From Nitrospirota bacterium (GTDB lineage Bacteria; Nitrospirota; Thermodesulfovibrionia; Thermodesulfovibrionales; JdFR-88), in NCBI GenBank assembly GCA_021789215.1, contig JAJYJS010000003.1, positions 49,828-113,827 on the forward strand: a DNA stretch of 64,000 nucleotides. The letters run 5' to 3'. A program made the position numbers and the translations under genes. Positions within the stretch are counted from its first letter, which is position 1; every line of letters begins with the position of its first letter. The notes under the pieces were generated by a model. That model worked only from the letters and a program-made list of their open reading frames with translations, was not told where the DNA came from and made no database searches. Shown piece after piece: positions 2,488 to 16,277 of this stretch.

Positions 2488-3597
2488 ATGTGCCGTCTTG
2501 CCGCGATTACGGCATCGGAGTATTTTTCGCCCCTGGAGAACGTATATGCCCTGGAAACGATGAAAGAGGGGCATGACGGCTCCGGAATGGGCCTTATGCT
2601 GAAGGACTTGGGAGGGTTCGCCGAACCCCTGAAGGAATACCCCGTGCTCTCGGGTATCTGCTCCAACGACGGCCTCAAGCGCATCGAGGACTACATGCTG
2701 GCGCAGGGCTTCCGTGAGGTCCACATGTGGAACCCGGTAATAAAGCCCCTGCCGGGTGTCGATAAAAAAGACTGTTATTTCGCCAAGTTTTACGACTACC
2801 CGGTCTCTTATAAAGAAAAACCCTGGAAAGAAAAGGAGCTTCTGCTCCTTGGCACCAGGCTTGCACTGAGAAGGATGGGAGAGAGCGACGAGTCCATAGT
2901 GGTCTTTTCCTTCTACCCCGATGTGATAACGCTCAAAGAAGTGGGGGACCCCCTCCAGCTTGCGGAGTATTTCGGTCTGGACAGGGATGGTCTCAAGGCC
3001 AGGATCGTGCTTGCCCAGGGGCGGCAGAACACCAACTATGCCATAAATCTCTATGCCTGCCATCCGTTCTTCATTCAGGGCTTCGGCACCATGACAAACG
3101 GCGAGAACACGGCATTTGTGCCGATAAGGGAATACCTGATGAGCCGGGGCTTTCAGGGCTACACCGGCTACCAGAGCGACAGCGAGGTCTTCACGCACAT
3201 CCTCCACTACACGGTAAACCGGCTGGGGTTCCCGCTCCCCTATTACAAGCATATAATAACCCCGCTTAAACGGCAGGAGATGGAGGGCAGGCCCGACAGG
3301 GATGCGCTTCTGCTTATGAGGCAGTCCATGAGGATGCTGGTCATCGACGGCCCAAACTGTGTTATCGGCTTCACCCCGGACGGGACGTGCTTCATGGTGC
3401 AGGACTCCAAAAAGCTCCGCCCCGGCGCGGTGGGCGGCAGGAAGGGCAAGTATGCGCTCATGTCCGAGGAGTGCGGCATAGACAAGGCCGTTCCCGAAAG
3501 GGACAGGTCGGAGGACATATTCCCGATGAAATACGACATGGTCATCGTGTCTCCGGGCGCGCAGGAGGTAAAGGTTTGGAACCAACTGAAAAACTAG
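2488..3597 (+). CDS. Glutamate synthase, class II (Ntn) glutamine amidotransferase domain protein (split GltB domain 1)
   Basis: The ORF track starts at 2308. The internal ATG at 2488 gives MCRLAAI (catalytic Cys2 of Ntn amidotransferases) and is preceded by AGGAGG at 2473-2478. The size is typical of archaeal-type GOGAT subunits. Confidence 0.8.
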   Translation: MCRLAAITASEYFSPLENVYALETMKEGHDGSGMGLMLKDLGGFAEPLKEYPVLSGICSNDGLKRIEDYMLAQGFREVHMWNPVIKPLPGVDKKDCYFAKFYDYPVSYKEKPWKEKELLLLGTRLALRRMGESDESIVVFSFYPDVITLKEVGDPLQLAEYFGLDRDGLKARIVLAQGRQNTNYAINLYACHPFFIQGFGTMTNGENTAFVPIREYLMSRGFQGYTGYQSDSEVFTHILHYTVNRLGFPLPYYKHIITPLKRQEMEGRPDRDALLLMRQSMRMLVIDGPNCVIGFTPDGTCFMVQDSKKLRPGAVGGRKGKYALMSEECGIDKAVPERDRSEDIFPMKYDMVIVSPGAQEVKVWNQLKN

Positions 3598-5237
3598 ACA
3601 AGAACCATCAGCTCACGCTGAAGGAGTTCCCATATACAATAAGCTGGCGCGACGACCGTTGCACCCGCTGCGGCCAGTGTACGGCCGTCTGCCCGGTGAA
3701 GGCCATCGTGCCCGACGTCCGGGTGGAGCGCGTTGTAAGCTCCGAGGGAAGCCTGCCAGCCCCGAAGGTCTCAAGAAGGGTCGTGCAGGTCGTAAGACAG
3801 GTAAACGACATAGACCGCTACTGCACGGGCTGCGCCATGTGCCAGCTCGTCTGCCCCAATGCGGCCATAGAGCCCGAGTTCAACCCTAGCCACAAGTTCC
3901 TCCACTTCAAGAACAAGGGCGGAGACGCATACAAGCGCGGCGGCAGGCGGAACGACCCCTCCCCCTCGACGCTCGACCAGCTGAAGTTCACCCGCATATC
4001 GATGCTCACGGACCCGGCGCTGGATGCCGGAAGGCACGAGTTCCACCTGAGGACCTTCCTTGGAAGGATTCTGCCCCCGGAGTCCCTGCCGCTCAAAGCC
4101 GAGGACGGCAGGCTGGTGGTCGACAGGAAATCCGATGTATTTGTCCCTCCCGTAAGGGAGATATACCCCATAATGATAGGCAGCATGTCCGTTGGCGCGC
4201 TCTCCCCGCCCATGTGGGAAGGGCTCGCGATGGGCGTGGCGTACCTGAACGAGGAGCTTGGCATGCCCGTTGTGATGTGCTCGGGCGAGGGCGGAATGCC
4301 CCCGAGGCTCCTCAAGTCGCGTTTCCTGAAATATTACGTCCTCCAGATAGCCTCAGGCTATTTCGGGTGGGACGAGATAGTCCGCGCGCTTCCCAGCATG
4401 GTGGAAGACCCCGCGGCCATAGAGATAAAGTACGGGCAGGGCGCAAAACCCGGCGACGGGGGGCTCCTGATGTCCTACAAGGTGCTCAAGCTCATATCGA
4501 GCATCAGGGGCGTGCCGATGATGGTTGACCTGGCCTCCCCGCCAACGCACCAGACCAAGTACTCCATCGAAGAGGCCGTGGCCAAGATGATACAGTCCAT
4601 GTCCATGGCATGGGGTTTCAGGGTGCCCGTTTACCCGAAGATATCGGGGACCAAAACGGCAAAGGCCGTCCTCAACAACCTCGCCAGGAACCCCTTTGCC
4701 GCGGCGCTCTCGATAGACGGTGAAGACGGCGGCACCGGGGCGGCCTACAACGTCTCGATGGACAAGATGGGCCACCCGATAGCCTCCAACATAAGGGAGT
4801 GCTACCTTGACCTGGTTAAGCAGGGCAAGCAGAATGAGCTGCCCCTGATAGCGGCAGGCGGCGTCGGGAAAAAGGGAAATCTCGCGGCGAACGCCGCCGC
4901 GCTCATAATGCTGGGGGCCTCCGCGGTCTCGATAGGCAAGTACCTCATGCAGTCCACCGCCGACTGCCTGGGAGACGAGAACAACCGCTGCAACCTCTGC
5001 AACACGGGCAGGTGCCCAAGGGGCATCACCACGCAGGACCCGAAACTTTACAGAAGGCTCGATTCCTCAAAGGTGGCCGAGAGGCTCGTTGACGTGTTCA
5101 GGGCCGCCGATACGGAACTCAAGAAGATATTCGCTCCCCTGGGCAGGAGCACGGAGCTGCCCATAGGCATGTCCGACGGCCTGAGCGTGGCCGACAAGGC
5201 CATTGCCGAAAGACTGGGTATAAGCTATGTCTGCTAA
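3576..5237 (+). CDS. Glutamate synthase FMN-binding domain protein with N-terminal 2x[4Fe-4S] ferredoxin domain (split GltB domain 2)
   Basis: CTRCGQCTAVCP and CTGCAMCQLVCP ferredoxin motifs are followed by GltS FMN-domain motifs (MSxGALS-like GSMSVGALSP, SGEGG, KYGQGAKPGDGG, GGTGAA). The start is inferred as TTG 3576, 7 nt after AGGAGG at 3563-3568. The ORF is open from 3387, so the start is uncertain. Confidence 0.8.
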   Translation: MEPTEKLDKNHQLTLKEFPYTISWRDDRCTRCGQCTAVCPVKAIVPDVRVERVVSSEGSLPAPKVSRRVVQVVRQVNDIDRYCTGCAMCQLVCPNAAIEPEFNPSHKFLHFKNKGGDAYKRGGRRNDPSPSTLDQLKFTRISMLTDPALDAGRHEFHLRTFLGRILPPESLPLKAEDGRLVVDRKSDVFVPPVREIYPIMIGSMSVGALSPPMWEGLAMGVAYLNEELGMPVVMCSGEGGMPPRLLKSRFLKYYVLQIASGYFGWDEIVRALPSMVEDPAAIEIKYGQGAKPGDGGLLMSYKVLKLISSIRGVPMMVDLASPPTHQTKYSIEEAVAKMIQSMSMAWGFRVPVYPKISGTKTAKAVLNNLARNPFAAALSIDGEDGGTGAAYNVSMDKMGHPIASNIRECYLDLVKQGKQNELPLIAAGGVGKKGNLAANAAALIMLGASAVSIGKYLMQSTADCLGDENNRCNLCNTGRCPRGITTQDPKLYRRLDSSKVAERLVDVFRAADTELKKIFAPLGRSTELPIGMSDGLSVADKAIAERLGISYVC

Positions 5238-7575
5238 GAAAGAAAAAACCATATACGGGAACATTGAAGGGCAAAGGGTCCCCTCCCGCATACTTGAGGA
5301 GCAGGTCCAGGAGGCCGTGAAAAACGGGGCCAGGGAACTGCACGTCGTGGCGGACGGCCAGCACGGCATAGGGGGCCGCATCTGGCCCCGCGAAAGCGCC
5401 GTGCGCCTTAGGGTCGAGGGCCCCGTGGGCCAGAGGCTTGGCAGCATGGGCATGGAGGGCACCGAGATAGTCGTCAATGGCGGCGTCTCCGACGACGTGG
5501 GCTGGATAAACTGCGGCGCAAGGATAACCGTGCTTGGCGACGTGACAAACGGCGCGCACAACGCGGCCGCCCAGGGCGTCCTTTACGTGCAGGGAAGCGC
5601 CGGGGCGCGCTCCGACACCCTCACGAAGCACAACCCGAGGTTCGCCCCCCCGCAGTCCTGGTATTTCAGGAACGTGGGGGACTCCTTCGCGGAGTTCAAG
5701 GCGGGCGGCATCTCGGTAATCTGCGGCGTGGAGCCCAGGAACCCGGACAACATACTTGGCTACCGTCCGTGCGTCGGCATGGTGGGCGGCGTCATATACT
5801 TCAGGGGGCCCATCCAGGGCTACAGCGCGGGCGACGTGAGGCTTGCGGAGCTTACCCCGGAGGACTGGCAATGGCTCAAGGACAACATGAAACCCTATCT
5901 GGAGGCCATCCAGCGCAAAGAATATTACAAGGAACTCACAAAAGACATAAACGACTGGCGCAAGTTCGTGGCCCATACCCCCCAGGAAAAAGCCAAACTC
6001 AAGAAAGTGAAGGTGGCCGTGGGGGATTTCGCAAAAGACGTCTGGGAGAAAGAGGTCGGCGAGGGCGGCATATTCGCCCCCTACCTGAACCACGAGCGGT
6101 CGCTCCTTCCCTACATAACGACGGGCGAAAACAGGCGCAACAAGCCCGTATGGGCCAACGGCAAATACAGCCCGCCCTGCGCCTACAACTGCCCCACGCA
6201 TATCCCGACCCACAAGCGGACTGCCCTTATAAGGGAAGGGAAGCTGATGGAGGCCCTGGAGCTTGTGCTGGAATACAGCCCGCTGCCGGCGACGGTCTGC
6301 GGCCAGATATGCCCCAACCTCTGCATGCAGAGCTGCACAAGGGGCATCATCATGGACTCCCCGCTCAGGATAAACCAGCTCGGAAGCCTTTCTCTTTCCG
6401 TGAAGGCGCCGAAACCCGCCAAAAAGACGGGCCACAGGATAGCCGTGATAGGCGGCGGCCCGGCCGGGCTCTCCGCGGCCTGGCAGCTCGCGCTGAAAGG
6501 CCATTCCGTTGACCTCTACGAGGCAGAGGAAAAGCTCGGCGGCAAGCTGGAGCTTTGCATACCGCGCGAAAGGCTCCCGCAGGCGGTGCTTTCCGCGGAG
6601 CTTGCAAGGTTCGGACAGTCCGGAGTGAAAATCCATCTGAAGAGCCGCATCGACCGGAAGAAGTTCGAGAAGATATACAAGGACCACGAGGCCGTCATAG
6701 TGGCCTGCGGGGCGCACCAGCCCAGGATGATAAAATTCGAGGGCTCCGAATCGGCTGTCTCCGCCTACGAGTTCCTGCGCGGGGTAAACACGGGCAAGAT
6801 GCCCTCCGTAAAGGGCAGGGACGTGGTTGTCATCGGCGCGGGCAACGTGGGCATGGATGCGGCCACGCAGGCGTTCCGCTGCGGCGCGGCCTCCGTTACC
6901 GCCGTTGACGTGCAGAAGCCCGCCGCCTTCGGCAAGGAAATGGAGACGGCCGCCGCGCTCGGCACGAAGATACTCTGGCCAAGGCTCACCCGGAAGTACG
7001 ACAGGAAGGCCGGGACCATATACTTCCAGGACGGCTCCACTCTGAAGGCCGATGCCGTTATCATTGCCATAGGCGAGACTCCCGTGGTGGATTTCCTGCC
7101 CGCGTCGATAGACCGCGACAAAAACGGCTGGGTGCGCGTGGACGAGCTTGGAAAGACCACAGACCCCAAAGTACTGGCCATAGGCGACGCCACGAGGCCC
7201 GGCCTTGTGACCCACGCGATAGGCCACGGCAGGGAAGCCGCCGATGTCATCCACTCCGGGCTGATGCACTACGACAGGATGCCCGAGGTAAAAAACCAGA
7301 TTCCCTATGAGCGCATAAAGACCGTCTATTACGAGGCGTGCAGGGGCAGCGAACCCGCGTATAACCCCGAAACGGACGCCAACAGGTGCCTGTCCTGCGC
7401 CTCCTGCCGGGACTGCCATATGTGCGAGAACGTCTGCTACTGGGGGGCCATCTCCAGGGTGGAAAAACCGGACGGCGGCTTCGAGTACGTGGTGGACGAC
7501 GAAAAATGCATCGGCTGCGGGTTCTGCGCTGGCATATGCCCATGCGGCATCTGGGAAATGACGGAAAACGTCTAA
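5227..7575 (+). CDS. Fusion protein: GltB GXGXG (domain 3) + GltD-like NAD(P)H/FAD oxidoreductase + C-terminal 2x[4Fe-4S] ferredoxin
   Basis: The N-terminus has repeated GXGXG-type beta-helix motifs (GQHGIGG, VNGGVSDDVGW, GDVTNGAHNAAAQG). The middle has the GltD Fe-S region (CGQICPNLCMQSCTRG) and a Rossmann motif (IAVIGGGPAGLSAA). The C-terminus has CLSCASCRDCHMCENVC and CIGCGFCAGICPC. The start overlaps the upstream stop by 11 nt. Confidence 0.8.
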   Translation: MSAKKEKTIYGNIEGQRVPSRILEEQVQEAVKNGARELHVVADGQHGIGGRIWPRESAVRLRVEGPVGQRLGSMGMEGTEIVVNGGVSDDVGWINCGARITVLGDVTNGAHNAAAQGVLYVQGSAGARSDTLTKHNPRFAPPQSWYFRNVGDSFAEFKAGGISVICGVEPRNPDNILGYRPCVGMVGGVIYFRGPIQGYSAGDVRLAELTPEDWQWLKDNMKPYLEAIQRKEYYKELTKDINDWRKFVAHTPQEKAKLKKVKVAVGDFAKDVWEKEVGEGGIFAPYLNHERSLLPYITTGENRRNKPVWANGKYSPPCAYNCPTHIPTHKRTALIREGKLMEALELVLEYSPLPATVCGQICPNLCMQSCTRGIIMDSPLRINQLGSLSLSVKAPKPAKKTGHRIAVIGGGPAGLSAAWQLALKGHSVDLYEAEEKLGGKLELCIPRERLPQAVLSAELARFGQSGVKIHLKSRIDRKKFEKIYKDHEAVIVACGAHQPRMIKFEGSESAVSAYEFLRGVNTGKMPSVKGRDVVVIGAGNVGMDAATQAFRCGAASVTAVDVQKPAAFGKEMETAAALGTKILWPRLTRKYDRKAGTIYFQDGSTLKADAVIIAIGETPVVDFLPASIDRDKNGWVRVDELGKTTDPKVLAIGDATRPGLVTHAIGHGREAADVIHSGLMHYDRMPEVKNQIPYERIKTVYYEACRGSEPAYNPETDANRCLSCASCRDCHMCENVCYWGAISRVEKPDGGFEYVVDDEKCIGCGFCAGICPCGIWEMTENV

Positions 7576-7623
7576 AACAACTTAAAATAAAACAAAAGAA
7601 GCAAAAACAAATAAAAACCAAAT

Positions 7624-7651
7624 AAAAAGGGGTCAGATTTGCCCCCTTTTT
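7624..7651. terminator. Bidirectional intrinsic terminator candidate between convergent genes
   Basis: aaaaaGGGGtcagatttgCCCCCttttt: a GC stem flanked by an A-run and a T-run, lying between the convergent genes ending at 7575 (+) and 7726 (-). Confidence 0.5.
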
Positions 7652-7680
7652 GAATCCCCCGTCTTTTTAAACCGCCTCTT

Positions 7681-7716
7681 TTCCCCTCGCCCTCCGGGAG
7701 AGGGGCAGGGATGAAG
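7681..7716. repeat. Small GC-rich palindromic element, family C, copy 1
   Basis: ttCCCCTCgccCTCCgGGAGaGGGGcagggatgaag. Its reverse complement shares tcatccc...gcccctctc-loop-ggag/gagg with the element at 26141-26198. Confidence 0.4.
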
Positions 7717-7725
7717 ACGTCTTTT

Positions 7726-9873
7726 TCAGTTGCCCGAACGTATCCCGCTGTCCAGGGCCTCTCTCACTGCAAGCAGAAGCTTGCCCCCGCTGAAAGGCTT
7801 TCTTAAAAAAACGGCCGGCTTGTGGTCCTCCGGGTCCGCGTTGAACCCCGTTATCGCGATTATCTTTGCCATCGGGTTCACCGCCGTTATTCCCTCTATC
7901 AGCTCCCTGCCGTTAAGGACCGGCATCAGCATATCGGTTATCACCAGGCTTATTTTGTTGTGGTTCTCCTGGTAAAGCCTCAGCCCCTGGACGGAGTTGT
8001 CCGTTGCAATCACCTTGAACCCCCTGGCCTTGAGGGTCTCCTTGATGAACTCCAGCACAGGGGATTCGTCGTCTATGGCGAGGATGGTCTCGTCGCCGGT
8101 CACCCATTCGCCTGAGGGCTCTTCCACCCGGCCCGGCCGGTCCGAAACCGGCAGGTACACATTGAAGACGGTCCCCTCGCCAAGCCTGCTACTCACGGTT
8201 ATGTAGCCCTTGTGCTCCTTTACTATGCCGTAAACCATCGCGAGGCCAAGCCCCGTGCCCTTGCCCTTCTCCTTGGTGGTGAAGAAGGGCTCGAATATGT
8301 GCGAGAGGTGCTCCTCCGCTATCCCCTTTCCGGTGTCCGAGACGGTGATGTTCACATAAGTGCCGCGCTCCACCTGGGCATCGATGGCGAGGCCCCTGGG
8401 GCCAAGCTCCATGAGAGATGTGCTTACCTTGAGGGTCCCTTTTTCGGGCATTGCGTCCCTCGCGTTTATTATCAGGTTCATTATCACCTGCTCCATTTGC
8501 GTCACGTCGCCCGACACGGCCGGGATGCGCTCCTCCAGGTTTTTTTCGATCTCTATGTGCGAGGGGATGAGCCTGGACATCATCTCAAGCGTGTCGTTTA
8601 TGACCTTGTTTATATCGAAGGGGACCGGCTCGAAATTTCCCCTCCTCGCGAAGCTGAGGAGCTTTGAGACCATCTGGGCGGCCTGCCGCGAGACCTTCTC
8701 TATGATCCTTACCTTGCTGAGGACGGACTCGCTTACGTCCTCCTGGTGGAGGATTATCTCCGCAAACCCCAGGATGGAGGTGAGGATGTTATTGAAGTCG
8801 TGCGCGATGCCGCCCGCAAGCTGGCCGATGGAGTCCATCTTCTGGGAATGCATCAGCTGGGCCTGCATCTTCTTCTTGTCCGTGATGTCGCGGCAGAAGG
8901 ACTGTATGAGCTTGTTGTCCTCCACCTCTATCAGTTTGGAAGTTACCTCAAGCGAGACCCTGCTGCCGTCCTTCCTGTAATGGGTGGTCTCGTAGAGGAG
9001 CGGCTCGCCTTTGATGACGCGGACCATTTTCTGGCTGAACCGCGTCCTGTCCTCGCCGGTCTCAAGCAGCGCGATATTGGTGCCGATAAGGGAGTTCCGG
9101 TCAAACCCGTGGATCTCACACAGCGCCCTGTTGAGGTTGAGGATGGTGCCTTTCGGGTCCGTGATAAGGATGCCGTCCTGCGCGTTCTCGAAAAGCGACC
9201 TGAACATTATCTCGGACTTGTTCATCTCCCTCGTCCGCTCCTCCACGAGCTGCTCCAGCCGCGTGGAATAGACCGCAAGCTGCTGCTTTTCCTTGTCGAG
9301 GTCGTACTGGAGACTGTACGTATTGATAAGGACCTTTTGACTCAGCGTGCGCCACACGAGAGCAATTATAAAGGTCGCAATAAAAAAAGCGTTGTTGCTC
9401 ACAAAAGCAGAATAGTTGGTAATTGTATCAAAAAAGTAAATGGGAACCAGGTAAATCAGGTAGATTAGACCCGCACAGACAAGCGATATTGTTAAATTTA
9501 ACGGGACAAACCCCAAAACGCAAATAACCAGCAGATTAAGTCCAGCGTAATAAGGTGAAGTATGCCCCCCCAGCCTCAGAATCATATATTCGATAACTGA
9601 GGCTGAAAGCACTACGGCAGTGACAATTACTGTGTAAACATTAGCCTTGTTTTTCCATTTCTTGAAAAAAAATTTGTTCCAGAAAAAAATGGAAATGAGG
9701 ACTGCGGTAATAGCCATCCTCAATACAAAAAAGTCGCCAAAATATTTTAGACTAACGAAATAGTCCATCAGCCCCAACATCAAAAACAGCACAGAACCCA
9801 GAATGAGAATAATATTGAACCAATAATATGTGAGATTCAGCAGGTGGTCTTTTATATACTCTTCTTTTCTCAT
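7726..9873 (-). CDS. Hybrid sensor histidine kinase (multi-TM sensor, PAS, HisKA, HATPase, receiver)
   Basis: 715-aa ORF with about 6 N-terminal hydrophobic helices and a PAS region. It has an H-box ([11 protein letters not shown]), an N-box ([10 protein letters not shown]), G-boxes ([15 protein letters not shown]) and a C-terminal receiver (ILAIDDE...VITDMLMP). Confidence 0.85.
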
Positions 9874-9891
9874 TTTACCCCGCCCGGCAGT

Positions 9892-11286
9892 CTAATTCTT
9901 CTGGAGAGTGTAAAAAATTATTACTCCTGAGCGGTCGCGGTCAATTTCAACACATTTTTCCGAAATCCCCGCTTTTTCAATCAATATTCTGCTTTCTTCT
10001 TCTGTCCGCTGATAAAAAGCGTTCCAGTCTACAAGCCAATGATAGTCCTGAGTTTCATACCGTCTGCAATCTTTAAACCCGGCAACAAGCTTCCCGCCGG
10101 GATTTAGCGTAAGATAGAGTGCTTTCAGCAGTCTTACAAGCACGTCGTCAGTTAAATAATCAAATAACCCTATGCTGTATATGATATCCTGCGACCCGAA
10201 TTCCTTGATATTCTTTTCATGGTTCACCATTCTCAATGCGTTATACTTGCGCATTTTGATTTGATGAACGATGTCGGTATACGAGAGCCTGTTTAACACA
10301 AAATCGATTGCATCGGAATCCAGGTCCACACAAGTCATTTCAGCTTCGGATTCTTTTATCCGGGGGGCAAGTTCAAACAGCTCTCTTGTTGACCCGCATG
10401 CGATGTTCAGAACTCTAGGTCCTTTCCTGGCCTCAAATTCCTTTTGCAGCATCCCCTTTATCCATGAAAGCCGCTCCCTGACCGCTTTTGCCAGTGTTGT
10501 TGAAAGAAAGTAGGAATCAAGCAGCCAACCGAGTCCTTCAGACAAAGGCATATTCCTGTAAATACCTTCCAGTATTTTGTAGTCACCAGGGTACCCTTTT
10601 GGCCATGTCCGGGCATGATTCATGAAATAGCTTTTTGAAAAAAACGGATTTGTTTTATTCCTAAATTCAACCTGTTTCCTTCTTAACAGGTCTTTGCAGT
10701 CCGCCAAAGTGTTTTCCACACTCCTAGCAAACTCAAAAAAAGCGCTTATTGCCTCGTACACTTTCCCCAGCAGAAAATCAGGATTTGATTTCCCTGATAA
10801 CAAGCCCTGCTCTGCATACGCAAGCCTCATATTGAATAAATCTATTTCCCTATCCAGATGGCAATCAATCTGCTCAAAAGCTTTCCTAAAGCTGTTTCCA
10901 ATTTCATTGGATCCTTCGAGATCGATATTACCGCTCTCTTTATCCAGATTGTTTCCGCAGAAATGGCAACTGGCATCTTCAACATGGTCTTTCATGAACT
11001 GCAACAGCATCGACTTGCCCTCGTCCCCCAGGTCGAGGAACTTCACCGCGACGCCGTTTTCCTCTTTCCTCAGCACCTTCCCCCGCACCTCCAGTTCGCC
11101 GTTTGGCAGCGGGGCCTTGAGCCTTACAATCGTGTTTTCGGGCAGCGAGAAGTCGGAATTTATGAATACCCCCCCGAGCCCCAGATTCGAGGTGATGGAA
11201 TTTTTCCGCAATCCCTTGCCATTGCCTTCGTCCACCGAAACCAACACCGGCAGCTGTGCCTTGCACCTGACATCCTGTCTGGCCAT
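9892..11286 (-). CDS. PilZ domain - class I SAM-dependent methyltransferase fusion protein
   Basis: The N-terminus has RQDVR (RxxxR) and NLGLGG (a D/NxSxxG-like variant), which are PilZ signatures. The C-terminus has methyltransferase motif I (VLNIACGSTRE) and an acidic motif (CVDLDSDAIDF). A GGAGAGGAG RBS precedes the ATG. The gene lies 18 nt upstream of the hybrid kinase gene on the same strand. Confidence 0.75.
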   Translation of the reverse strand: MARQDVRCKAQLPVLVSVDEGNGKGLRKNSITSNLGLGGVFINSDFSLPENTIVRLKAPLPNGELEVRGKVLRKEENGVAVKFLDLGDEGKSMLLQFMKDHVEDASCHFCGNNLDKESGNIDLEGSNEIGNSFRKAFEQIDCHLDREIDLFNMRLAYAEQGLLSGKSNPDFLLGKVYEAISAFFEFARSVENTLADCKDLLRRKQVEFRNKTNPFFSKSYFMNHARTWPKGYPGDYKILEGIYRNMPLSEGLGWLLDSYFLSTTLAKAVRERLSWIKGMLQKEFEARKGPRVLNIACGSTRELFELAPRIKESEAEMTCVDLDSDAIDFVLNRLSYTDIVHQIKMRKYNALRMVNHEKNIKEFGSQDIIYSIGLFDYLTDDVLVRLLKALYLTLNPGGKLVAGFKDCRRYETQDYHWLVDWNAFYQRTEEESRILIEKAGISEKCVEIDRDRSGVIIFYTLQKN

Positions 11287-11314
11287 CTTTCTCCTCTCCT
11301 TTTTATAAACTTTT

Positions 11315-11335
11315 CGGGTTATAAAAAATAACCCG
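11315..11335. promoter_or_regulatory. Perfect 8-bp inverted repeat (operator or 5'-UTR hairpin candidate)
   Basis: CGGGTTAT-aaaaa-ATAACCCG, 29-49 nt upstream of the PilZ-methyltransferase start, in the divergent intergenic region. Confidence 0.3.
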
Positions 11336-11470
11336 TTTGCAAATATAAGTCATAGAAAAAATTTTTACAACATTAAATTGAAATTTTAGCGTCAGAAGGC
11401 CAAAAAAAGACTTTTTGCGGGATGGAAACGGGGTTTGCCAATTCAGGGGGCGGGAGGTTATACTAGGTTC

Positions 11471-11689
11471 ATGCCGATATTCGAATATGTATGCAACAAG
11501 TGCCAGGGGGAGTTTGAAAAGCTGGTTTACTCCTCCACGAAGGTCATCTGCCCCAAATGCGGCTCTGATGACGTGAAGAAGAAGCTCTCCACCTTCGGGA
11601 TGAGCGGGCTGGCAACGCCCTTTTCAGGCGGCGGGCCGTCTTCCGGGTGCGGCTCCTGCAGCAAGTCCTCCTGCTCCGGCTGCCACTAG
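11471..11689 (+). CDS. FmdB-family zinc-ribbon protein
   Basis: MPIFEYVCNKCQGEFE...CPKCGSDDVKK is the CxxC...CxxC pattern of the FmdB/CxxC_CxxC_SSSS family, with a Gly/Ser/Cys tail. The internal ATG at 11471 was chosen because of the GGGAGG-like RBS just upstream. Confidence 0.7.
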   Translation: MPIFEYVCNKCQGEFEKLVYSSTKVICPKCGSDDVKKKLSTFGMSGLATPFSGGGPSSGCGSCSKSSCSGCH

Positions 11690-11716
11690 CAGGTTGCTGA
11701 AAAAGTCCTCATTTTG

Positions 11717-11804
11717 GTCATTGCGAGGAGCGCAAGCGACGAAGCAATCTCATAAGTAATCGATTTTTCTAAAGACGTGATTGCTTCGCTCCGCTCGCAA
11801 TGAC
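11717..11804. repeat. Palindromic intergenic element, family A, copy 1 (REP/MITE-like)
   Basis: GTCATTGCGAGgagcgcaagcGACGAAGCAATC ... GATTGCTTCGCtccgCTCGCAATGAC. The termini are the same as the element at 43865-43958. It lies between convergent genes. Confidence 0.7.
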
Positions 11805-11835
11805 AGTCGAAACAGTTTTTCAGCAGCCTGCTAGA

Positions 11836-13563
11836 CTACTTTATATACGCCTCGGTCACATACCTCAGCATCATGCGGTTCGTGTTGAAATAATAGGCGT
11901 TCTTGCCAATAGCGTTCTGCATCATTTTTATCCATGTGCGCCGGTTGCCGTAGAACATGGGAATGATTATCTCTTCCAGCTTCATGTAGAGGTCCTCCGC
12001 GTCCTGCTCGTCCCTTGCAGCGGGAGGCGTGTCCATCTCTTCGGAGGGGGCGGGGCCTATGGCCCAGCCGGTATAGCCCTCTATGTGCCCCTCAATCCAC
12101 CAGCCGTCCAGCACGCTGAAATTCATTACGCCGTTGTGCGCCGCTTTCATCCCGGAGGTGCCGGAGGCCTCCCTCGGCCTCTGCGGGGTGTTCATCCACA
12201 GGTCCACGCCAGAGACCATCTTCAGCGCCAGGTCCATGTCGTAATTTGGCAGGTAAACTATTTTCACCCTTCCCGCGAGCTTTTTTATGCACTCGAAGAC
12301 GTGCTTTATGACCAGCTTGCCGGGGATGTCCCTGGGGTGGGCCTTGCCCGCATAGATTATCTGGACCTTGCCGGAGGCGACCCTGGCAAGCCGCTCGATG
12401 TCCCTGAACAAGAGGTCGCCCCGTTTATAGGCCGTGGCCCTCCTTGCAAACCCGATGGTGAGGGTCTCGTAATCCATCCCGATGCCTGTCCGGCCGTTCA
12501 CGTAATCTATCAGAAGTTTTTTTGCGGCCATGTGGGCCTCCCAAAGCTCCTCCTCCGGCACCCTGCCGACCCTCACGAAAAGCTCCGGCTCGTTTGCCCA
12601 TCCGGGCATATATTTGTCAAAAACCTTTTTCATGCTGTCGCACGTCCACGTGAACGAATGCACGCCGTTGGTGATGGAGGAGAACTCGTAGCCGGGAAAC
12701 ATCCGCATGGAGACCTCCTTGTGCTTTTTCGCCACTCCATTGACGTACTCCGTCAGGTTCAGGGCAAGGTGCGTCATGTTCAGCTTCTCCTGCCCGCCCA
12801 GCTTCTTGAGCACCCTGAAGGGGATCATCTCGCCCAGCACCTGCTTTATCAGCTCGTAGGAGAACTTGTCGTGCCCGGCCTCCACGGGCGTATGCGTCGT
12901 AAAGACGCAGAGGTCCTTGACGCGCTCCACGTCCCAGATAAGGTCCTCGTCCCAGACGGCCTCGATGTCCCGCCTGTATTCTATCAGCAGCTCGATTGTA
13001 AGCAGGCTGGCGTGGCCCTCGTTCATGTGGTACTTCTTTATCTCGAAGCCCAGTTTGCGGAGCATCCTCACCCCGCCGATGCCGAGCACGGCCTCCTGCT
13101 TGAGCCGGTATTTGTCGTCCCCGCCGTAAAGAAATGAGGTGATATCGCGGTCTTCCGCGCTGTTTTCCGGCATGTCAGTGTCCAGGAACAGGATGGGCAC
13201 CTTGCCGCCCGTTACGCTCTGCTGGATATAGAGCCAGCACCGGATGGCCACCTGCCTGCCCTCCAGCTCCACATGGACGCGCTCGGGCAGGGGCTTCATG
13301 AAGCGCTCCGGCTGCCAGGGCGCGGGGGCTTCAGTCTGGCTGCCCTCGGCATCGAGCTTCTGCTCGAAATACCCCTTCTTACACAGCAGCGTCACCGCGA
13401 GCAGGGGTATCTTGAGGTCGGCAGCGGAGCGTATGGTATCCCCCGCAAGCACGCCCAGACCGCCGCTGTAGGTGTGCATGCCGTTTTGCACGCCTATTTC
13501 CATCGAGAAATAGGCGATTTTAGGTTCCTTCAGAAACTCCCAGAGGGAGGCTGCGGGCTCCAT
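11836..13563 (-). CDS. glgP: Alpha-glucan (glycogen/maltodextrin) phosphorylase, GT35 short form
   Basis: 575-aa ORF with the PLP-lysine region PREASGTSGMKAAHNGVMNFSVLDGWW and N-terminal GGLGVLAGD. Confidence 0.9.
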   Translation of the reverse strand: MEPAASLWEFLKEPKIAYFSMEIGVQNGMHTYSGGLGVLAGDTIRSAADLKIPLLAVTLLCKKGYFEQKLDAEGSQTEAPAPWQPERFMKPLPERVHVELEGRQVAIRCWLYIQQSVTGGKVPILFLDTDMPENSAEDRDITSFLYGGDDKYRLKQEAVLGIGGVRMLRKLGFEIKKYHMNEGHASLLTIELLIEYRRDIEAVWDEDLIWDVERVKDLCVFTTHTPVEAGHDKFSYELIKQVLGEMIPFRVLKKLGGQEKLNMTHLALNLTEYVNGVAKKHKEVSMRMFPGYEFSSITNGVHSFTWTCDSMKKVFDKYMPGWANEPELFVRVGRVPEEELWEAHMAAKKLLIDYVNGRTGIGMDYETLTIGFARRATAYKRGDLLFRDIERLARVASGKVQIIYAGKAHPRDIPGKLVIKHVFECIKKLAGRVKIVYLPNYDMDLALKMVSGVDLWMNTPQRPREASGTSGMKAAHNGVMNFSVLDGWWIEGHIEGYTGWAIGPAPSEEMDTPPAARDEQDAEDLYMKLEEIIIPMFYGNRRTWIKMMQNAIGKNAYYFNTNRMMLRYVTEAYIK

Positions 13564-13791
13564 GGCTCCTTAAATTCTAAGGCAATCGCGCGATATATAC
13601 AAGCCCCGGACTGGATTCTTCGGTCAAGCGCGGCCGCAAGGGGCGCATGGTCTGCGAGGGGGGGCGCGGGGGGCGAAGCCCCCGGCAGATAAAGGGCGGG
13701 CGGGACAAGAAAATGCCTTCCCCCGCCAAATCCAAACCATGACTTTGTGTTAAAATAGTGCAATCTTTTTCCAAAGAGAGGACTTTTAGCC

Positions 13792-14616
13792 ATGTTCAAT
13801 ATGAAAGCGGTGGAGCCCAGACAGCTGGACACCGGTTCCACATTCAAGTTCAGGTGCTACAAGGGGATATCCTGTTTCACCCGCTGCTGCTCCAATATCG
13901 ACATAATGCTCACCCCTTACGATGTCCTGAGGATGAAAAGGCGGCTCGGCATAAGCTCCGAGGAGTTCCTTGAGAAATACACCATCGTGCGGACGGACAA
14001 GAATTCCTCCCACCCTTATGCATATTTGAAGATGAACAACGACACGGAAAGGAAATGCCCCTTTGTTGTCGTCCCTGACGGCTGCACCATATACACGGAC
14101 AGGCCCGTAAGCTGCCGTTACTACCCCGTGGGGCAGGGCACCCTCAAGAAAAGGGACAACGAGGGAAAGATCGTCCACGAGGAGTTCTATTTCTTCGTGA
14201 AGGAGGCCCACTGCAAGGGCTACGAGGAACAGACCCAGTGGACGATAGGCTCCTGGAAGGACGACCAGGAGATAACCGTTTACGACAGCATGAACCGCGA
14301 GTGGAAAGAGCTCCTCATGCGCAGGAACCTGCCCAACCAGCCCATGCTGGACGACAAGAAAAGAATGCTGTTCTTCATGGCCAGCTACGACCTGGACAAG
14401 TTCCGCCGGTTCGTGCTGGACAGCCGCTTCCTCGACATCTTCGAGCTGCCAGGAGAGGAGGCCGAAGAGATAAAGACCTCGGAAGAGGCCCTGATGAAAC
14501 TCTCCTTCAAGTACCTTAAATTCATGCTGGGCATGGAGCAGGCCCTGAACGTAAAGCGGGAATTCATCAAAGGCAAGGACAAGCCCGCAGACCCCGCCAC
14601 CGAAAAGAAGGATTAA
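13792..14616 (+). CDS. YkgJ-family (CxxCxxCC) cysteine-cluster protein
   Basis: FRCYKGISCFTRCCSN...CPFVV..GCTIYTDRPVSCRYYP matches the putative Zn/Fe-chelating CxxCxxCC family pattern. The C-terminal extension is about 130 aa. Confidence 0.7.
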   Translation: MFNMKAVEPRQLDTGSTFKFRCYKGISCFTRCCSNIDIMLTPYDVLRMKRRLGISSEEFLEKYTIVRTDKNSSHPYAYLKMNNDTERKCPFVVVPDGCTIYTDRPVSCRYYPVGQGTLKKRDNEGKIVHEEFYFFVKEAHCKGYEEQTQWTIGSWKDDQEITVYDSMNREWKELLMRRNLPNQPMLDDKKRMLFFMASYDLDKFRRFVLDSRFLDIFELPGEEAEEIKTSEEALMKLSFKYLKFMLGMEQALNVKREFIKGKDKPADPATEKKD

Positions 14617-14914
14617 AAAAAATCCTCAACAGGGCCGCTGAACGCATTCCCGGCGGGGAAACCCGCCCATAATGTCTGGCACCCCAAAAAAAATTCCCTT
14701 TGCGGTTGCAGAGAACTTTTTTTGGGGGTGGGCTTCCCCCCTTGCATAATTCCAATATTGTATATCTCTTTTTTCAAATCTGTTATAATCAGCTAACACA
14801 ACCATAAGTTTCAATACCTCAGGGTGGAAAAAGCCGTGCAGGGCCCGGCAAGTTCCAAGGCGGACGATCAAGTTCGCAGGGGAATAATAAAAAAGCCCAT
14901 AACCAGGAGCGGCC

Positions 14915-15895
14915 ATGCAACAGAAAACATCGCAGTTGTATGACGAACAAGCGGCAGTGGCCTTTTACCAGGAGCGCTATGCCCGCGGTTATATGGATGA
15001 ATGGCCGGTTGAAAAGAAGCGAAGGGTCTTTGAACTCATCCGCGGTCTTGAGCTTCCGGACAAGGGCGAAGCCCTTGACTTTGGATGCGGCAACGGCGTA
15101 TTCACGGAAATTATCAGGCAGGCCCTGCCTCCGGGGTGGAAGGTATATGGCGCGGACATAAGCGGGACCGCCGTTGAGAACGCAAAAAAGCGTTATCCAA
15201 AGTGCACCTTCCTTGTGTCAGGCGGCGGGAAATTTTTAAAAACCGGGAGATTTGATTTTCTGTTTACGCATCATGTGCTCGAACACGTCTATGATCTGCC
15301 TAAGGTCCTTGACGAGATTAACGGCTGCCTGAAAGACAAGTCTGAGATGCTGCACATTTTACCCTGCGGCAATGAAGGCAGCTTTGAGCATGATATTTGC
15401 CTTTTGCGAAAAGACGGAATTAACCGGCATCTCGAGGACCGCTTTTTCTTTGAGGACGAGGGGCATGTGCGACGGCTGACCACAGAGCAGTTGAGCAAAC
15501 TTTGTGAAAACAGGGGGTTTGCCCTGGCAAAGGAGTGTTACAGCAATCAATACCACGGCTCCATCAACTGGATCACGCGGGATGGACCCGGTTTCATACG
15601 GAAGTTTACCGGCATATCCGCGGCCCTGGATGAAGAGGCCGAAGACAAACTCAGGAAATTGCGCCGCAGGCTGTTCTGTTTTTGGGCCTTGCGCTATCCG
15701 GCGATTTCCGTTGAAACCATATTGCGCAAAAAGGGCAGGACCGTCCGCGATTATTTTTCCCTGATGACTGGTTTGCCCCTTTATCCATTGGCAAAACCGG
15801 TCGATTCTTATCTGAAACGCAAGGCGTCTGATGAATGGGACAAAAGAAAAACAGAGCGGAACGGCAGCGAAATGTATGTCTTTTTCAAAAGATGA
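14915..15895 (+). CDS. Class I SAM-dependent methyltransferase
   Basis: Motif I ALDFGCGNGVFTE, then GADISGTAVENAK and FDFLFTHHVLEHV. One hand-counted 100-nt sample gave 46% GC, lower than the neighbouring genes. Confidence 0.75.
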   Translation: MQQKTSQLYDEQAAVAFYQERYARGYMDEWPVEKKRRVFELIRGLELPDKGEALDFGCGNGVFTEIIRQALPPGWKVYGADISGTAVENAKKRYPKCTFLVSGGGKFLKTGRFDFLFTHHVLEHVYDLPKVLDEINGCLKDKSEMLHILPCGNEGSFEHDICLLRKDGINRHLEDRFFFEDEGHVRRLTTEQLSKLCENRGFALAKECYSNQYHGSINWITRDGPGFIRKFTGISAALDEEAEDKLRKLRRRLFCFWALRYPAISVETILRKKGRTVRDYFSLMTGLPLYPLAKPVDSYLKRKASDEWDKRKTERNGSEMYVFFKR

Positions 15896-15911
15896 AAAAC
15901 AAAAAAGCCCT

Positions 15912-16277
15912 TTACGCGGTTTCCAGTTCTTTTTTTATCCAGTCCGCCACGGTTTCGTCTACAGGGTACATGCCCATTACATGATTTGCCCCTCCGGCCT
16001 TCACGGCGCCCCGGAGGAGGTCTTCGGGCGCGTCCTCTATATGGGCGATGCTTTTTGATGTGAGGTTGTAGGTCTTCATCACCATAAGCTCGGGTCTCGG
16101 CATATCCGGCATGTAATCGATGTAAAAAGAAAACCCCTGGATTTCCTTTATCAGCTCCTCCTGCCCTCCGCAGTTTGCGAAGCGGGGCTTGAAAAGCATC
16201 GCCGGGGTGAGGTCGAACCTCAGGTTGTCAATAAAAACCCTGTTTTTCCTGAGTCTTGCGATCTTGATGTCCAGCAT
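15912..16277 (-). CDS. Hypothetical protein (121 aa)
   Basis: Clean ORF tightly packed after the upstream gene (12-nt gap). I recognise no motif. Confidence 0.5.
   Translation of the reverse strand: MLDIKIARLRKNRVFIDNLRFDLTPAMLFKPRFANCGGQEELIKEIQGFSFYIDYMPDMPRPELMVMKTYNLTSKSIAHIEDAPEDLLRGAVKAGGANHVMGMYPVDETVADWIKKELETA

Follow-up and report, generated by a model that had tools for sequence, protein, structure and literature searches.

A low-GC stretch occupies most of a gene for a PilZ-methyltransferase fusion and the 5' third of the adjoining hybrid histidine kinase gene in a Nitrospirota genome. The initial annotation of the window (the whole analysed stretch of 64,000 nt) described an AT-rich island at 9340-11430 and proposed either a laterally acquired mosaic module or strong compositional constraint. 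The reading favoured in this study, with a probability of about 0.6, is that a two-gene signalling module has its allele-specific core in this stretch, and that its synthase and receptor, which would resemble PhcB/PhcS and be gated by c-di-GMP, have diverged into specificity alleles.

The GC content of 9340-11430 is 42.9%, compared with a mean of 57.5% (sd 2.3, minimum 50.4%) in all other 2091-nt windows; the stretch thus lies about 6 sd below the remainder, and the four 100-nt hand counts first made (34%, 38%, 50% and 66%) were exact on recount. The dip is mainly an effect of the third codon position, and its edges are sharp and fall inside both genes. GC3 is 0.45 in methyltransferase residues 101-464 and 0.47 in kinase residues 1-190, versus 0.79 in methyltransferase residues 1-100 and 0.82 in kinase residues 191-715, the background being 0.778 (sd 0.046, minimum 0.587; 442 windows of 150 codons from other genes). 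The block as a whole has a GC3 of 0.43-0.51, near the intergenic GC (0.44). The low-GC core of the island therefore stands, but its proposed extent does not: the 5' ∼300 nt that encode the PilZ domain (about 10993-11286) have normal composition and lie outside it, and DNA identity and composition together place the true block at ∼9265-10995. The upstream spacer (11287-11434, 32% GC) is AT-rich like other intergenic spacers (mean 44%), and the cytoplasmic part of the kinase is of normal composition and contains the right recombination junction (Table 1).

Table 1. Features of the two-gene locus (positions in the window)
Feature	Position	Strand	Basis
Promoter-like site TTGTAA-17-TATATT of the two-gene operon	11342..11370	-	Consensus scan
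Perfect 8-bp inverted repeat (CGGGTTAT / ATAACCCG)	11315..11335 (11315-11322 / 11328-11335)	.	Sequence
464-aa PilZ / vestigial zinc ribbon / helical cap / class I SAM methyltransferase gene	9892..11286	-	Pfam, AF2
PilZ domain, residues 3-98, outside the cassette	10993..11280	-	Pfam, motifs, AF2
Disordered linker, residues 102-123, with CHFC pair and left recombination junction	10918..10983	-	Alignment, pLDDT, identity drop
Helical cap, residues 124-286, putative substrate-binding domain	10429..10917	-	AF2, 3OCJ likeness
Rossmann-fold SAM-binding catalytic domain, residues 287-464	9895..10428	-	Alignment, profile search, Foldseek
Hypervariable low-GC3 cassette, type A	9265..10995	-	Identity collapse versus L091, GC3
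Kinase membrane sensor, residues 1-195, within the cassette	9289..9873	-	Hydropathy, GC3
Cytoplasmic kinase part: coiled-coil linker, PAS, HisKA, HATPase, receiver	7726..9288	-	Pfam

Comparison with relatives, all of which are metagenome-assembled genomes, defines the same block independently of composition. At 60-nt resolution, the DNA identity of the window to its close relative L091 reaches 0.88-1.00 on one flank (11001-11360) and 0.90-1.00 on the other (8661-9260), whereas between these flanks it is 0.33-0.83, mostly 0.33-0.68; the drop on the left begins at 10941-11000, within the methyltransferase linker. The PilZ part of the protein is ∼93% identical to that of L091 and the overlapping cytoplasmic part of the kinase 97%. 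In the pair L001 and L008 the flanks are ∼99% identical and the block 40-65%, with breakpoints at methyltransferase codon ∼126 and kinase codon ∼196-226, the same positions as in the window. The contiguous cassette of ∼1.7 kb runs from the helical cap and catalytic domain of the methyltransferase through the 18-nt spacer into the kinase gene, where it takes in the membrane sensor; what lies outside it, namely the promoter, the PilZ part and the PAS-kinase-receiver part, is conserved. At least four cassette types, 40-58% identical to one another, occur among hot-spring Nitrospirota, each in several species. Flank identity groups L001 with L008 (93-97%) and L003 with L009 and L018 (81-93%), whereas block identity groups the window with L001 and L003, L008 with L012 (and L009), and L018 with L019. 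Neighbour-joining trees of block and flanks have conflicting topologies with 100% bootstrap on key clades. A one-off acquired island does not describe the block, which is an allelic cassette swapped for other versions in near-identical genomes.

The methyltransferase core and the six-helix sensor are always swapped jointly. Across 29 loci, without correction for kinship, the identities of core and sensor correlate at r = 0.82 and those of the PilZ and cytoplasmic kinase parts at r = 0.86, whereas the cross-correlations are only 0.51-0.64. Identity between types is lowest in the helical cap (29-36%, helices 1-3) and in TM1-3 of the sensor (33-42%), while the catalytic motif stretch of the methyltransferase (residues 217-262) is 72% identical. 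Several unrelated contexts are represented among the 29 distinct loci in which the six-helix kinase comes next after the methyltransferase gene.

The sharp edges, the deficit of this size and the demonstrable recombination of the block between lineages would also suit a classical horizontal island, imported recently from a low-GC donor and not yet ameliorated, the AT-richness being that of the donor genome; family members with natively low GC3 do exist (L005, L006 and L029). This explanation is nevertheless unlikely. In every lineage the two edges fall inside open reading frames and coincide with homologous junctions between domains; no tRNA gene or flanking repeats were found at the block, and no integrase was noticed beside the locus. 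All four cassette types of the clade have low GC3, each across several species, and type-A copies in three species, whose blocks have diverged like their flanks (68-73% versus 60-74%), still have a GC3 of ∼0.45. Furthermore, the clade's block alleles cluster together with 100% bootstrap, apart from the sampled lower-GC relatives, including L005, and the closest identity outside the clade is ∼49-54%, with no near donor among the sampled sequences. The most likely origin of the low GC3 is population-genetic, not a recent import. Long-lived, strongly diverged alleles would recombine poorly with each other and would thereby escape the biased gene conversion or codon selection that holds GC3 near 0.8, drifting to the mutational equilibrium of intergenic DNA (about 44% GC). 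The GC3 deficit tracks discordance (Spearman 0.54, not corrected for kinship), and L011, L013, L036, L057 and L079 have neither cassette discordance nor a deficit (block GC3 0.71-0.84).

The protein encoded by the first gene, which is 100% identical to P0001 ('MAG: Nitrospiraceae bacterium PilZ domain-containing protein'), has the fusion architecture initially described, with Pfam matches to PilZ at residues 3-98 (E = 1.8e-10, score above the Pfam cutoff) and to Methyltransf_25 at residues 292-398 (33.8 bits, cutoff 27), and the 18-nt gap to the kinase gene is likewise as described (stop codon at 9892, kinase start codon at 9873). The fusion itself, which had been called unusual, is common: an N-terminal PilZ domain, of one of two classes, is found in 59 of 84 related loci. 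In the AF2 model (mean pLDDT 91.7) the PilZ domain consists of a β-barrel (residues 8-83) and a helix (88-101), the pLDDT falls below 50 at residues 117-126 of the linker region, and the cap helices run over residues 124-164, 169-193, 198-216 and onward. The CHFC pair is present, but alignment and the AF2 model put it in the disordered linker, not in the helical region; it is the vestigial half left of a zinc ribbon that reads CPFCG...CxxCG in relatives, the second CxxC having been deleted in the window protein. An invariant RxWPxGYxGD motif lies inside the cap, and the SAM-binding residues are retained (invariant G298, D321, D323 and G373).

The kinase has about six transmembrane helices with very short loops; hydropathy peaks lie at residues 18-36, 45-63, 81-99, 114-132 and 155-173, and a sixth hydrophobic stretch at ∼132-150 was judged by eye. 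Pfam assigns PAS (223-332), HisKA (350-412), HATPase_c (455-576) and Response_reg (597-699) domains, whereas MASE8 gave no match in the sensor of the window and sub-threshold matches only in relatives. Neither an HD-GYP nor a GGDEF gene adjoins the locus in the window, and no response regulator or Hpt protein stands out as a partner.

The substrate class of the methyltransferase need not be regarded as wholly unknown, as had been assumed, since its closest solved relative is a fatty-acid methyltransferase. A profile search against the PDB gave 3OCJ as the best match (profile positions 272-408, E = 4e-4), and Foldseek ranked the same structure first (E = 1.5e-13, target-normalised TM-score 0.62), the remaining fold matches being small-molecule methyltransferases. 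3OCJ, crystallised with palmitate in its helical domain, is the orthologue (BPP1064) of Bordetella pertussis FmtB (BP2936), a membrane-associated free-fatty-acid methyltransferase whose activity has been demonstrated in vivo but not in vitro (PMC5426589). Both proteins combine a Rossmann core with a helical domain for the substrate, and the window methyltransferase can be aligned with FmtB at the (I/V)D(Y/L)D strand and at the SAM loop, 'xCGxxxE', with its unusual single glycine. Identity nevertheless reaches only about 17%, and FmtB carries a hydrophobic segment at its N-terminus and lacks a PilZ domain; it is not known to have a partner kinase or a signalling role. In addition, at least 11 homologues were named by JGI '3-hydroxypalmitic acid methyl ester biosynthesis protein', i.e. 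PhcB, the quorum-sensing synthase of Ralstonia, and the putative relationship to PhcB rests on these annotation names. In other family members the operon of the methyltransferase also encodes two ketoacyl synthases and a FabG-like reductase.

The joint exchange and the correlation of core and sensor (r = 0.82) would also result from direct protein-protein contact. In that case there would be no diffusible signal: the methyltransferase would modify the kinase or a nearby membrane lipid, or dock on the sensor, and contact would drive the co-variation, the diversity arising from some other diversifying pressure. The membrane association of FmtB fits such an arrangement, and MapZ-CheR provides the precedent of a PilZ protein that controls a receptor-modifying methyltransferase (10.1101/814665). 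It is rather improbable here, however. By fold and closest relatives the enzyme belongs with the methyltransferases of small molecules, whose helical substrate cap is closed, and not with protein methyltransferases; in the distant relative L092 the methyltransferase gene is followed by a different, unrelated polytopic kinase (HisKA_7TM-GAF) and two response regulators. Moreover, the fatty-acid-synthesis-type operons of other species lack any kinase, so that a lipid-like product fits better than a dedicated modifier of the kinase.

Ordinary compositional constraint, through AT-rich codons of membrane segments, slow translation or weak mRNA structure, is very improbable and is refuted in practice by homologues without the dip. 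The sensor is indeed rich in Phe, Ile, Leu, Tyr, Asn and Lys, with lowered GC1 (0.40) and GC2 (0.28). However, the dip is chiefly one of synonymous third positions (0.45-0.47 versus about 0.8), half to two thirds of the block encodes a soluble cytoplasmic enzyme, no 150-codon stretch of the other genes, a large P-type ATPase included, falls below 0.587, and the orthologous blocks of seven GC-rich genomes (L011, L013, L014, L017, L036, L057 and L079) have the GC3 of their flanks (0.71-0.85); the block is therefore a mosaic module, as one of the two initial proposals had it, rather than a product of membrane-protein composition. A metagenome-assembly artefact, with chimeric contigs joining reads of different organisms across a conserved gene, is conceivable in that every sequence is a MAG or metagenome contig but has almost no likelihood, as window positions 4757-11714 are matched without one mismatch in an independent Logan assembly of SRR33270670, P0002 and P0004 are each present on several contigs from different sources, reading frames are intact over both junctions in all loci and identical junction positions recur in independent assemblies.

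The c-di-GMP gating proposed initially is plausible from motifs and gene neighbourhoods. RQDVR fits the RxxxR motif, which is kept in 48 of 50 relatives, and DLSMGG of the BcsA PilZ domain (4i86) is the counterpart of NLGLGG in the alignment, the c-di-GMP-contacting Ser being replaced by Gly both in the window protein and in ∼84% of class-1 relatives; binding of c-di-GMP by the PilZ domain is thus only putative. A second PilZ class with a canonical DISxSG motif is fused to the same methyltransferase family. A receiver-HD-GYP gene adjoins 11 of 38 class-1 loci versus none of 46 others (not corrected for kinship), and an operon of GGDEF, HD-GYP, PilZ-methyltransferase and kinase genes is present in five species. 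Like the c-di-GMP receptors in which PilZ is fused to an enzyme or controls one (the cellulose synthase BcsA, Alg44 and MapZ-CheR1), the window protein has a canonical PilZ fold and a C-terminal amphipathic helix, which in other PilZ proteins contacts the partner (10.1101/814665). It differs from them in the Gly of its second motif and in being fused to a putative signal synthase, a combination for which no published description was found.

Upstream of the gene, an TTGTAAAAAT...TAATAT core is kept in eight relatives. The perfect 8-bp inverted repeat noted initially is present and lies between the -10 element and the ribosome-binding site; as RNA it would form a hairpin of -10.8 kcal/mol (z = -2.5), with no Rfam match. 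Its conservation is confined to L091, where the stretch is 98% identical, and it is not kept in L001, L003, L008, L009, L012, L018 or L021. A hairpin in the 5'-UTR or an operator is conceivable, although the significance of the repeat is doubtful.

Among the known systems most similar to the proposed module is the phcBSRQ operon of Ralstonia solanacearum, in which the gene for a SAM methyltransferase (PhcB) likewise directly precedes that for a polytopic membrane histidine kinase (PhcS). The products would be of one class, fatty-acid methyl esters such as 3-OH MAME and 3-OH PAME, and PhcB and PhcS fall into two signal-type groups that do not follow phylotype (PMC11960443), so that co-diversification of synthase and sensor independent of strain phylogeny is common to both systems. 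The comparison was made by names and descriptions, several homologues having been named after PhcB by JGI. The differences are that the N-terminal PilZ domain and zinc ribbon have no description for PhcB in the literature found, that the kinase is a PAS-containing hybrid with its own receiver, that no phcR, phcQ or phcA equivalents lie near the window locus, that at least four deeply diverged cassette types stand against two Ralstonia signal types and that the hosts are thermophilic, uncultured Nitrospirota.

In Staphylococcus agrBDC and Bacillus comQXP, conserved flanks enclose a hypervariable stretch made up of the gene or genes for signal production and the N-terminal membrane sensor half of the kinase, allele and species phylogenies conflict, and several specificity groups coexist; the signals are ribosomal peptides with processing enzymes. 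The cassette has the same layout and tree conflict, with no homology implied, but uses a small-molecule methyltransferase instead, and its breakpoint lies inside the synthase gene, so that, unlike in those systems, a regulatory PilZ domain stays constant. In the DSF system of Xanthomonas, a fatty-acid-derived signal made by the crotonase RpfF is sensed by the polytopic hybrid kinase RpfC, which acts on the receiver-HD-GYP protein RpfG. A polytopic hybrid kinase and a proposed fatty-acid-derived signal are common to both, and a receiver-HD-GYP gene adjoins the module in L003, L006, L009, L029 and others; however, the synthase here is a methyltransferase, the window locus has no HD-GYP gene and phosphotransfer is putative.

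In the proposed mechanism, the methyltransferase would convert a fatty-acid-type carboxylate into its hydrophobic methyl ester, as FmtB and Ralstonia PhcB do, and the product would diffuse outward and be detected within the membrane by the polytopic sensor of the cognate kinase. Binding of c-di-GMP at the N-terminal PilZ domain would turn signal synthesis on or off, and in relatives the receiver-HD-GYP phosphodiesterase and GGDEF cyclase of the same operon would close a feedback loop. PilZ gating, if true, would couple signal output to the c-di-GMP state of the cell. Each cassette type would have its own signal-and-receptor specificity and hence provide a private channel for co-occurring relatives; cassette swapping thus most likely gives related hot-spring bacteria different private chemical signalling channels.

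The segment at 9340-11430, which had been described in the initial annotation as an AT-rich island, contains 42.9% GC, compared with 57.0% for the whole window. Other windows of 2091 nt average 57.5% GC (sd 2.3, minimum 50.4), and the segment therefore lies about 6 sd lower, outside the normal variance of this sliding comparison; the four 100-nt counts originally reported (34%, 38%, 50% and 66%) were exact. The dip is located mostly at third codon positions and does not follow gene borders. Codon-usage statistics bear this out, with a GC content at third codon positions (GC3) of 0.45-0.47 in the block, compared with a mean of 0.778 (sd 0.046, minimum 0.587; 442 windows of 150 codons) in other genes. 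The block extends over about 1.7 kb (approximately 9265-10995) and comprises the cap and catalytic domain of a PilZ-methyltransferase fusion, the spacer of 18 nt between the two genes and the membrane sensor of a hybrid kinase. The low-GC block itself was thus correctly recognized, but its proposed extent was too large: the PilZ domain lies outside it, because the GC3 step falls within the methyltransferase gene after residue ~100, and the PilZ-coding part has a GC3 of 0.79. The upstream spacer is AT-rich like other spacers, intergenic DNA averaging 44% GC. Membrane-protein composition was ruled out as the cause, since third codon positions carry the effect and no dip is seen in GC-rich homologues, and the alternative of a strong compositional constraint fails against the same synonymous effect and the same homologues. 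An independent assembly matches the window from 4757 to 11714 without a single mismatch; an assembly artefact is excluded as the source of the block.

Features of the PilZ-methyltransferase locus, GC3 of its parts and cassette types among related loci
Feature	Position, residues or loci	Strand	Basis or value
Hybrid kinase gene, 715 aa	7726-9873	-	PAS, HisKA, HATPase, receiver (Pfam)
PilZ-methyltransferase gene, 464 aa	9892-11286	-	gene call, Pfam
Promoter-like TTGTAA-17-TATATT	11370-11342	-	conserved across clade
Disordered linker	residues 102-123	-	AF2 model
Helical cap	residues 124-286	-	AF2 model
Rossmann domain, alternating strand/helix	residues 291-462	-	AF2 model
GC3, methyltransferase (PilZ)	residues 1-100		0.79
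GC3, methyltransferase	residues 101-464		0.45
GC3, kinase	residues 1-190		0.47
GC3, kinase	residues 191-715		0.82
Cassette type A	window, L001, L003		block identity
Cassette type B	L008, L012, L009		block identity
Cassette type C	L018, L019		block identity
Cassette type D	L091		block identity

The PilZ domain of the fusion protein (PF07238) is matched at residues 3-98 (Pfam E 1.8e-10, 41.5 bits against a cutoff of 22.5), and in the AF2 model of the 464-aa protein (mean pLDDT 91.7) the PilZ fold is present as a barrel (residues 8-83, with strands at 13-83) and a C-terminal helix (88-101), modelled at pLDDT >90. The class I methyltransferase domain was detected by Pfam at residues 292-398 (Methyltransf_25, 33.8 bits, cutoff 27; Methyltransf_12, 32.1 bits, cutoff 30); the fold, the glycine SAM loop and the acidic residue of strand 2 are those of a class I SAM-dependent methyltransferase. 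The SAM loop has the variant sequence IACGSTRE and can be aligned with the equivalent loop of the PDB entry 3OCJ; all of 89 sequences share the SAM-binding residues G298, D321 and D323. A helical region containing a CHFC pair had also been described; the helical cap is found in the model, but the pair (10963-10974, residues 105-108) is located in the disordered linker (10918-10983). The kinase sensor consists of about six hydrophobic helices with short loops. Its assignment to MASE8 (PF20968) was dropped because the matches in relatives are below the curated threshold (21.2-24.4 bits, cutoff 26.2), and the sensor of the window gave no match even at E up to 10.

Upstream of the fusion gene, an 8-bp inverted repeat that follows the -10 element and precedes the ribosome-binding site is predicted to form a hairpin of -10.8 kcal/mol. 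This repeat was rejected as a conserved operator or riboswitch, as Rfam contains no match to it and it is kept only in L091, the closest relative; it is real but of little weight. A small gene of the Zn_ribbon_8 (FmdB) type with a Cys/Ser/Gly-rich tail (11435-11689, +) is divergent from the promoter region, a position that is kept in three syntenic loci (L001, L008 and L090). The gene after the kinase encodes an oxidoreductase and is convergent with it (5227-7575, +). A 766-aa ORF antisense to the oxidoreductase gene (5119-7419, -) is rich in Ala, Gly, Arg and Pro; this composition is common in shadow ORFs of GC-rich coding DNA, and the ORF is taken to be one of these and not a gene.

Elsewhere in the window, a segment of ~1.3 kb (14617-15911) between a CxxCxxCC gene (13792-14616) and a gene for 121 aa (15912-16277) has no counterpart in the syntenic locus L001, in which the two genes adjoin. 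The segment contains a 96-aa ORF without a Pfam match and another class I methyltransferase gene (14915-15895; Methyltransf_23, E 2e-18), whose GC3 is lowered to 0.59. A 1380-aa ORF (59496-63638, -) is of normal codon composition (GC3 0.75) but is not matched by Pfam at E ≤ 1e-4, and an 814-aa multihaem cytochrome (47584-50028, +) contains 16 doubled-CXXCH matches (Paired_CXXCH_1, E 1e-219). Two-component genes are present at 32166-33959 (-), namely a single-domain receiver and a receiver/sigma-54 activator (32565-33959), and at 41013-43802 (-), where a triple-PAS hybrid kinase is encoded; no evidence connects them to the PilZ-methyltransferase module.

The nature of the block became apparent from comparison with related loci. 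In L091, a contig of 3.4 kb (ENA sample ERZ27233565), DNA identity to the window is 90-100% over 8661-9260 and most of 11001-12080, but only 33-68% across about 9265-10995; the corresponding protein identities are ~93% for PilZ and 97% for the cytoplasmic part of the kinase, compared with 54% for the methyltransferase core and 52% for the sensor. Similarly, L001 and L008, which come from two different MAG assemblies and are both syntenic with the window, have flanks about 99% identical to each other, whereas the region from methyltransferase codon ~126 to kinase codon ~196-226 is only 40-65% identical. Each of L003, L009 and L018 has a block of its own, although their flanks are 81-93% identical. 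At least four cassette types are defined by block identities, which are 62-77% within types A-C and 40-58% between types. Furthermore, the trees of flank and block contain conflicting key clades, each with 100% support (NJ, 200 bootstraps). Across 29 loci, the identity of the methyltransferase core tracks that of the sensor (r = 0.82) and the identity of PilZ tracks that of the cytoplasmic part of the kinase (r = 0.86), whereas the cross-correlations are only 0.51-0.64. On the basis of the type swaps on conserved flanks, the tree conflict and these paired correlations, the block is a recombining allelic cassette. The reading of a mosaic module in the initial annotation was right in this respect but incomplete, in that the block is one of at least four exchangeable cassettes.

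Between types, the most variable parts are the helical cap (29-36% identity) and TM1-3 of the sensor (33-42%), and the catalytic motif is 72% identical. One junction is located in the disordered linker that follows PilZ, the other in a conserved coiled-coil that precedes the PAS domain. Most relatives contain a four-cysteine zinc ribbon (CPFCG...CxxCG) between PilZ and the cap; in the window only CHFC is left of it, its second Cys pair being deleted, and in L091 the ribbon is degenerate in another way (CLFCRMDTC). Its decay coincides with the left recombination junction. The locus has the structure of a pherotype locus, with a hypervariable putative synthase and N-terminal sensor, conserved flanks and conflict between the allele and flank trees.

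All four cassette types have a low GC3 (0.42-0.65; flanks 0.61-0.88). The dip is not a general property of the family: where a genome is GC-rich and shows no cassette discordance (L011, L013, L036, L057 and L079), the GC3 of the block equals that of the flanks (0.71-0.84). Across loci, the GC3 deficit correlates with the discordance between flank and block (Spearman 0.54, p = 0.002, the points not being independent). As to origin, a classical genomic island was rejected as unlikely: there is no tRNA gene in the window at 1-20000, no repeat at 8900-11500, and both block edges fall inside genes. A single recent import of low-GC DNA is argued against by the absence of tRNA genes and repeats in those ranges, by the monophyly of the block alleles of the clade relative to the lower-GC relative L005 (100% bootstrap) and by the type-A copies in three species, which have diverged about as much as their flanks. 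In the donor search, no sampled relative outside type A exceeded ~54% identity to the block of the window. We infer that the low GC3 arose through poor recombination between diverged alleles: deeply diverged alleles would recombine poorly with one another, would escape whatever keeps GC3 near 0.8 in these genomes and would relax to the mutational equilibrium of spacers (0.44).

The family of the fusion protein is large. Among GTDB species representatives, 237 relatives were found, mostly in MAGs of Nitrospirota/Thermodesulfovibrionia, Thermodesulfobacteriota, Aquificota and Planctomycetota, and a library of 1.84 billion representatives contains 193 clusters (at 50% identity) with a match of E ≤ 1e-30. 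A kinase of the same type, with about six membrane helices followed by PAS-HisKA-HATPase-receiver, directly follows the methyltransferase gene in 29 distinct loci from several unrelated genomic contexts. The 84 distinct loci are divided into 38 of the kind seen in the window (class 1), 21 with another PilZ N-terminus (class 2) and 25 without PilZ. Class-2 proteins (~426 aa; for example P0074, P0097 and P0110, and loci L054 and L060) have no zinc ribbon and keep a canonical DISxSG motif; their PilZ domain was missed by precomputed Pfam annotation of the full-length proteins, and a kinase is adjacent in one of 18 loci. In addition, six PilZ-methyltransferase loci have no adjacent kinase (L026, L030, L035, L038, L039 and L066; for example, L035 7411-12261), and the genes downstream encode a short-chain reductase similar to FabG, two beta-ketoacyl synthases and an FAD amine-oxidase/desaturase-like protein, an arrangement that resembles an operon for lipids or of polyketide type. 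In L092 (1-13383), the methyltransferase is only distantly related (38% identity, 460 aa) and its N-terminus is not PilZ; the genes after it encode another kind of polytopic kinase (HisKA_7TM-GAF) and two receiver proteins, and ~5 kb upstream there are two integrase genes of phage type. The kinase-less FabG operons and the kinase context of L092 lend support to a putative lipid-like product that would be sensed by a membrane kinase.

The closest structural relative of the enzyme is 3OCJ, the top PDB match of a profile search (E 4e-4, catalytic domain only) as well as of Foldseek (E 1.5e-13, 17% identity, TM-score 0.42 query-normalized and 0.62 target-normalized); a single-sequence PDB search gave no match, the profile search alone succeeding. 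The remaining fold matches are small-molecule methyltransferases. In Bordetella pertussis the orthologue of 3OCJ is FmtB, which methylates free fatty acids; 3OCJ itself was crystallized with palmitate in its helical domain (PMC5426589). The enzyme of the window and 3OCJ are related, at a distance too great for substrate specificity to be transferred, and the operons with FabG and ketoacyl synthases in relatives are only suggestive of fatty-acid methylation. At least 11 homologues are named by JGI after PhcB (KEGG K19620 description), which in Ralstonia makes signals that are methyl esters of 3-hydroxy fatty acids. Ralstonia is absent among the best 80 of the 237 genome relatives, those 80 all being from MAGs, and a tblastn search of PLSDB plasmids with the methyltransferase core found no Ralstonia sequence, its matches all being class I methyltransferases of distant relationship (≤29% identity). 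The names of 10 candidates of 460-476 aa from the clusters were uninformative.

The PilZ motifs identified in the initial annotation are retained only in part on alignment. RxxxR is kept as R3-Q-D-V-R7 in the window, its counterpart in BcsA (4i86) being RNSHR, and 48 of 50 relatives also have it, but the second motif departs from [D/N]hSxxG in that Gly replaces Ser (N34-L-G-L-G-G39); in class-1 relatives this position is Gly in about 42 of 50 and Ser in 2 of 50, and NLGLGG otherwise aligns with DLSMGG of BcsA. Binding of c-di-GMP by the PilZ domain is thus plausible but unproven. Indirect support may come from the neighbouring genes of relatives. A receiver-HD-GYP gene adjoins 11 of 38 class-1 loci and none of 46 others (Fisher p = 6.5e-5, not phylogeny-corrected), and five species (L006, L029, L040, L045 and L052) contain a one-strand operon of GGDEF, receiver-HD-GYP, PilZ-methyltransferase and hybrid kinase genes (for example, L006 2761-9473). 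In L003, L009, L018 and L019 a receiver-HD-GYP gene lies just past the kinase on the opposite strand, followed in L003 and L009 by a PilZ-receiver gene. The locus in the window has no HD-GYP or GGDEF neighbours, and a search of the window for such genes gave only receiver-domain matches (32565-33959 and 41013-43802).

Among known systems, the module resembles Ralstonia PhcB/PhcS in its layout, with a synthase gene and then a membrane sensor kinase in one operon, and in its probable chemistry, a likeness that is based on gene layout and the JGI annotation names. In Ralstonia Phc, synthase and sensor are split into signal types independently of phylogeny (PMC11960443). Unlike Phc, the module has a PilZ and zinc-ribbon front end, a PAS-containing hybrid kinase with its own receiver, and a convergent oxidoreductase gene instead of phcR/phcQ-type regulators downstream, and no PhcA partner is apparent nearby; the number and depth of its alleles and its compositional signature also differ. 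In population structure, the module is like the pherotype loci agr and comQXP. Pherotype diversification is known mainly from Gram-positive peptide systems, with a two-type form in Ralstonia Phc, and we know of no cultured model for cell-cell signalling in Nitrospirota. In a literature search, neither a Nitrospirota system of the PhcB kind nor a signal synthase with a fused PilZ domain was found to have been described.

We infer a signalling function for the module and its gating by c-di-GMP. The fullest reading, to which we would assign a probability of roughly 35%, is that in uncultured thermophilic Nitrospirota the locus encodes the synthase of a small-molecule quorum signal, gated directly by c-di-GMP through PilZ, with at least four ancient pherotype cassettes of synthase core and receptor sensor whose AT-richness is a scar of balancing selection. 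The cassettes would then move between species by homologous recombination at conserved domain junctions, under long-term balancing selection and suppressed recombination much like those of a mating-type locus.

If this reading is correct, a within-gene GC3 step could serve as a general, annotation-free detector of specificity loci in GC-rich genomes. Since the four cassettes sit on near-identical backgrounds, natural domain-swap experiments are available, and these natural cassette swaps can be used to map specificity determinants in both enzyme and sensor. Furthermore, the combination of cassette polymorphism with a local collapse of GC3 to the intergenic level makes it testable at one locus whether recombination-dependent processes maintain high GC3 in bacteria. 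The module would also be the first case found in which a putative signal synthase carries a fused receptor domain for c-di-GMP; information usually flows from quorum signal to second messenger, and a flow from second messenger to quorum signal would reverse this direction. Pherotype-style diversification of signal and receptor would be extended to a methyltransferase-based small-molecule system, in the Nitrospirota.
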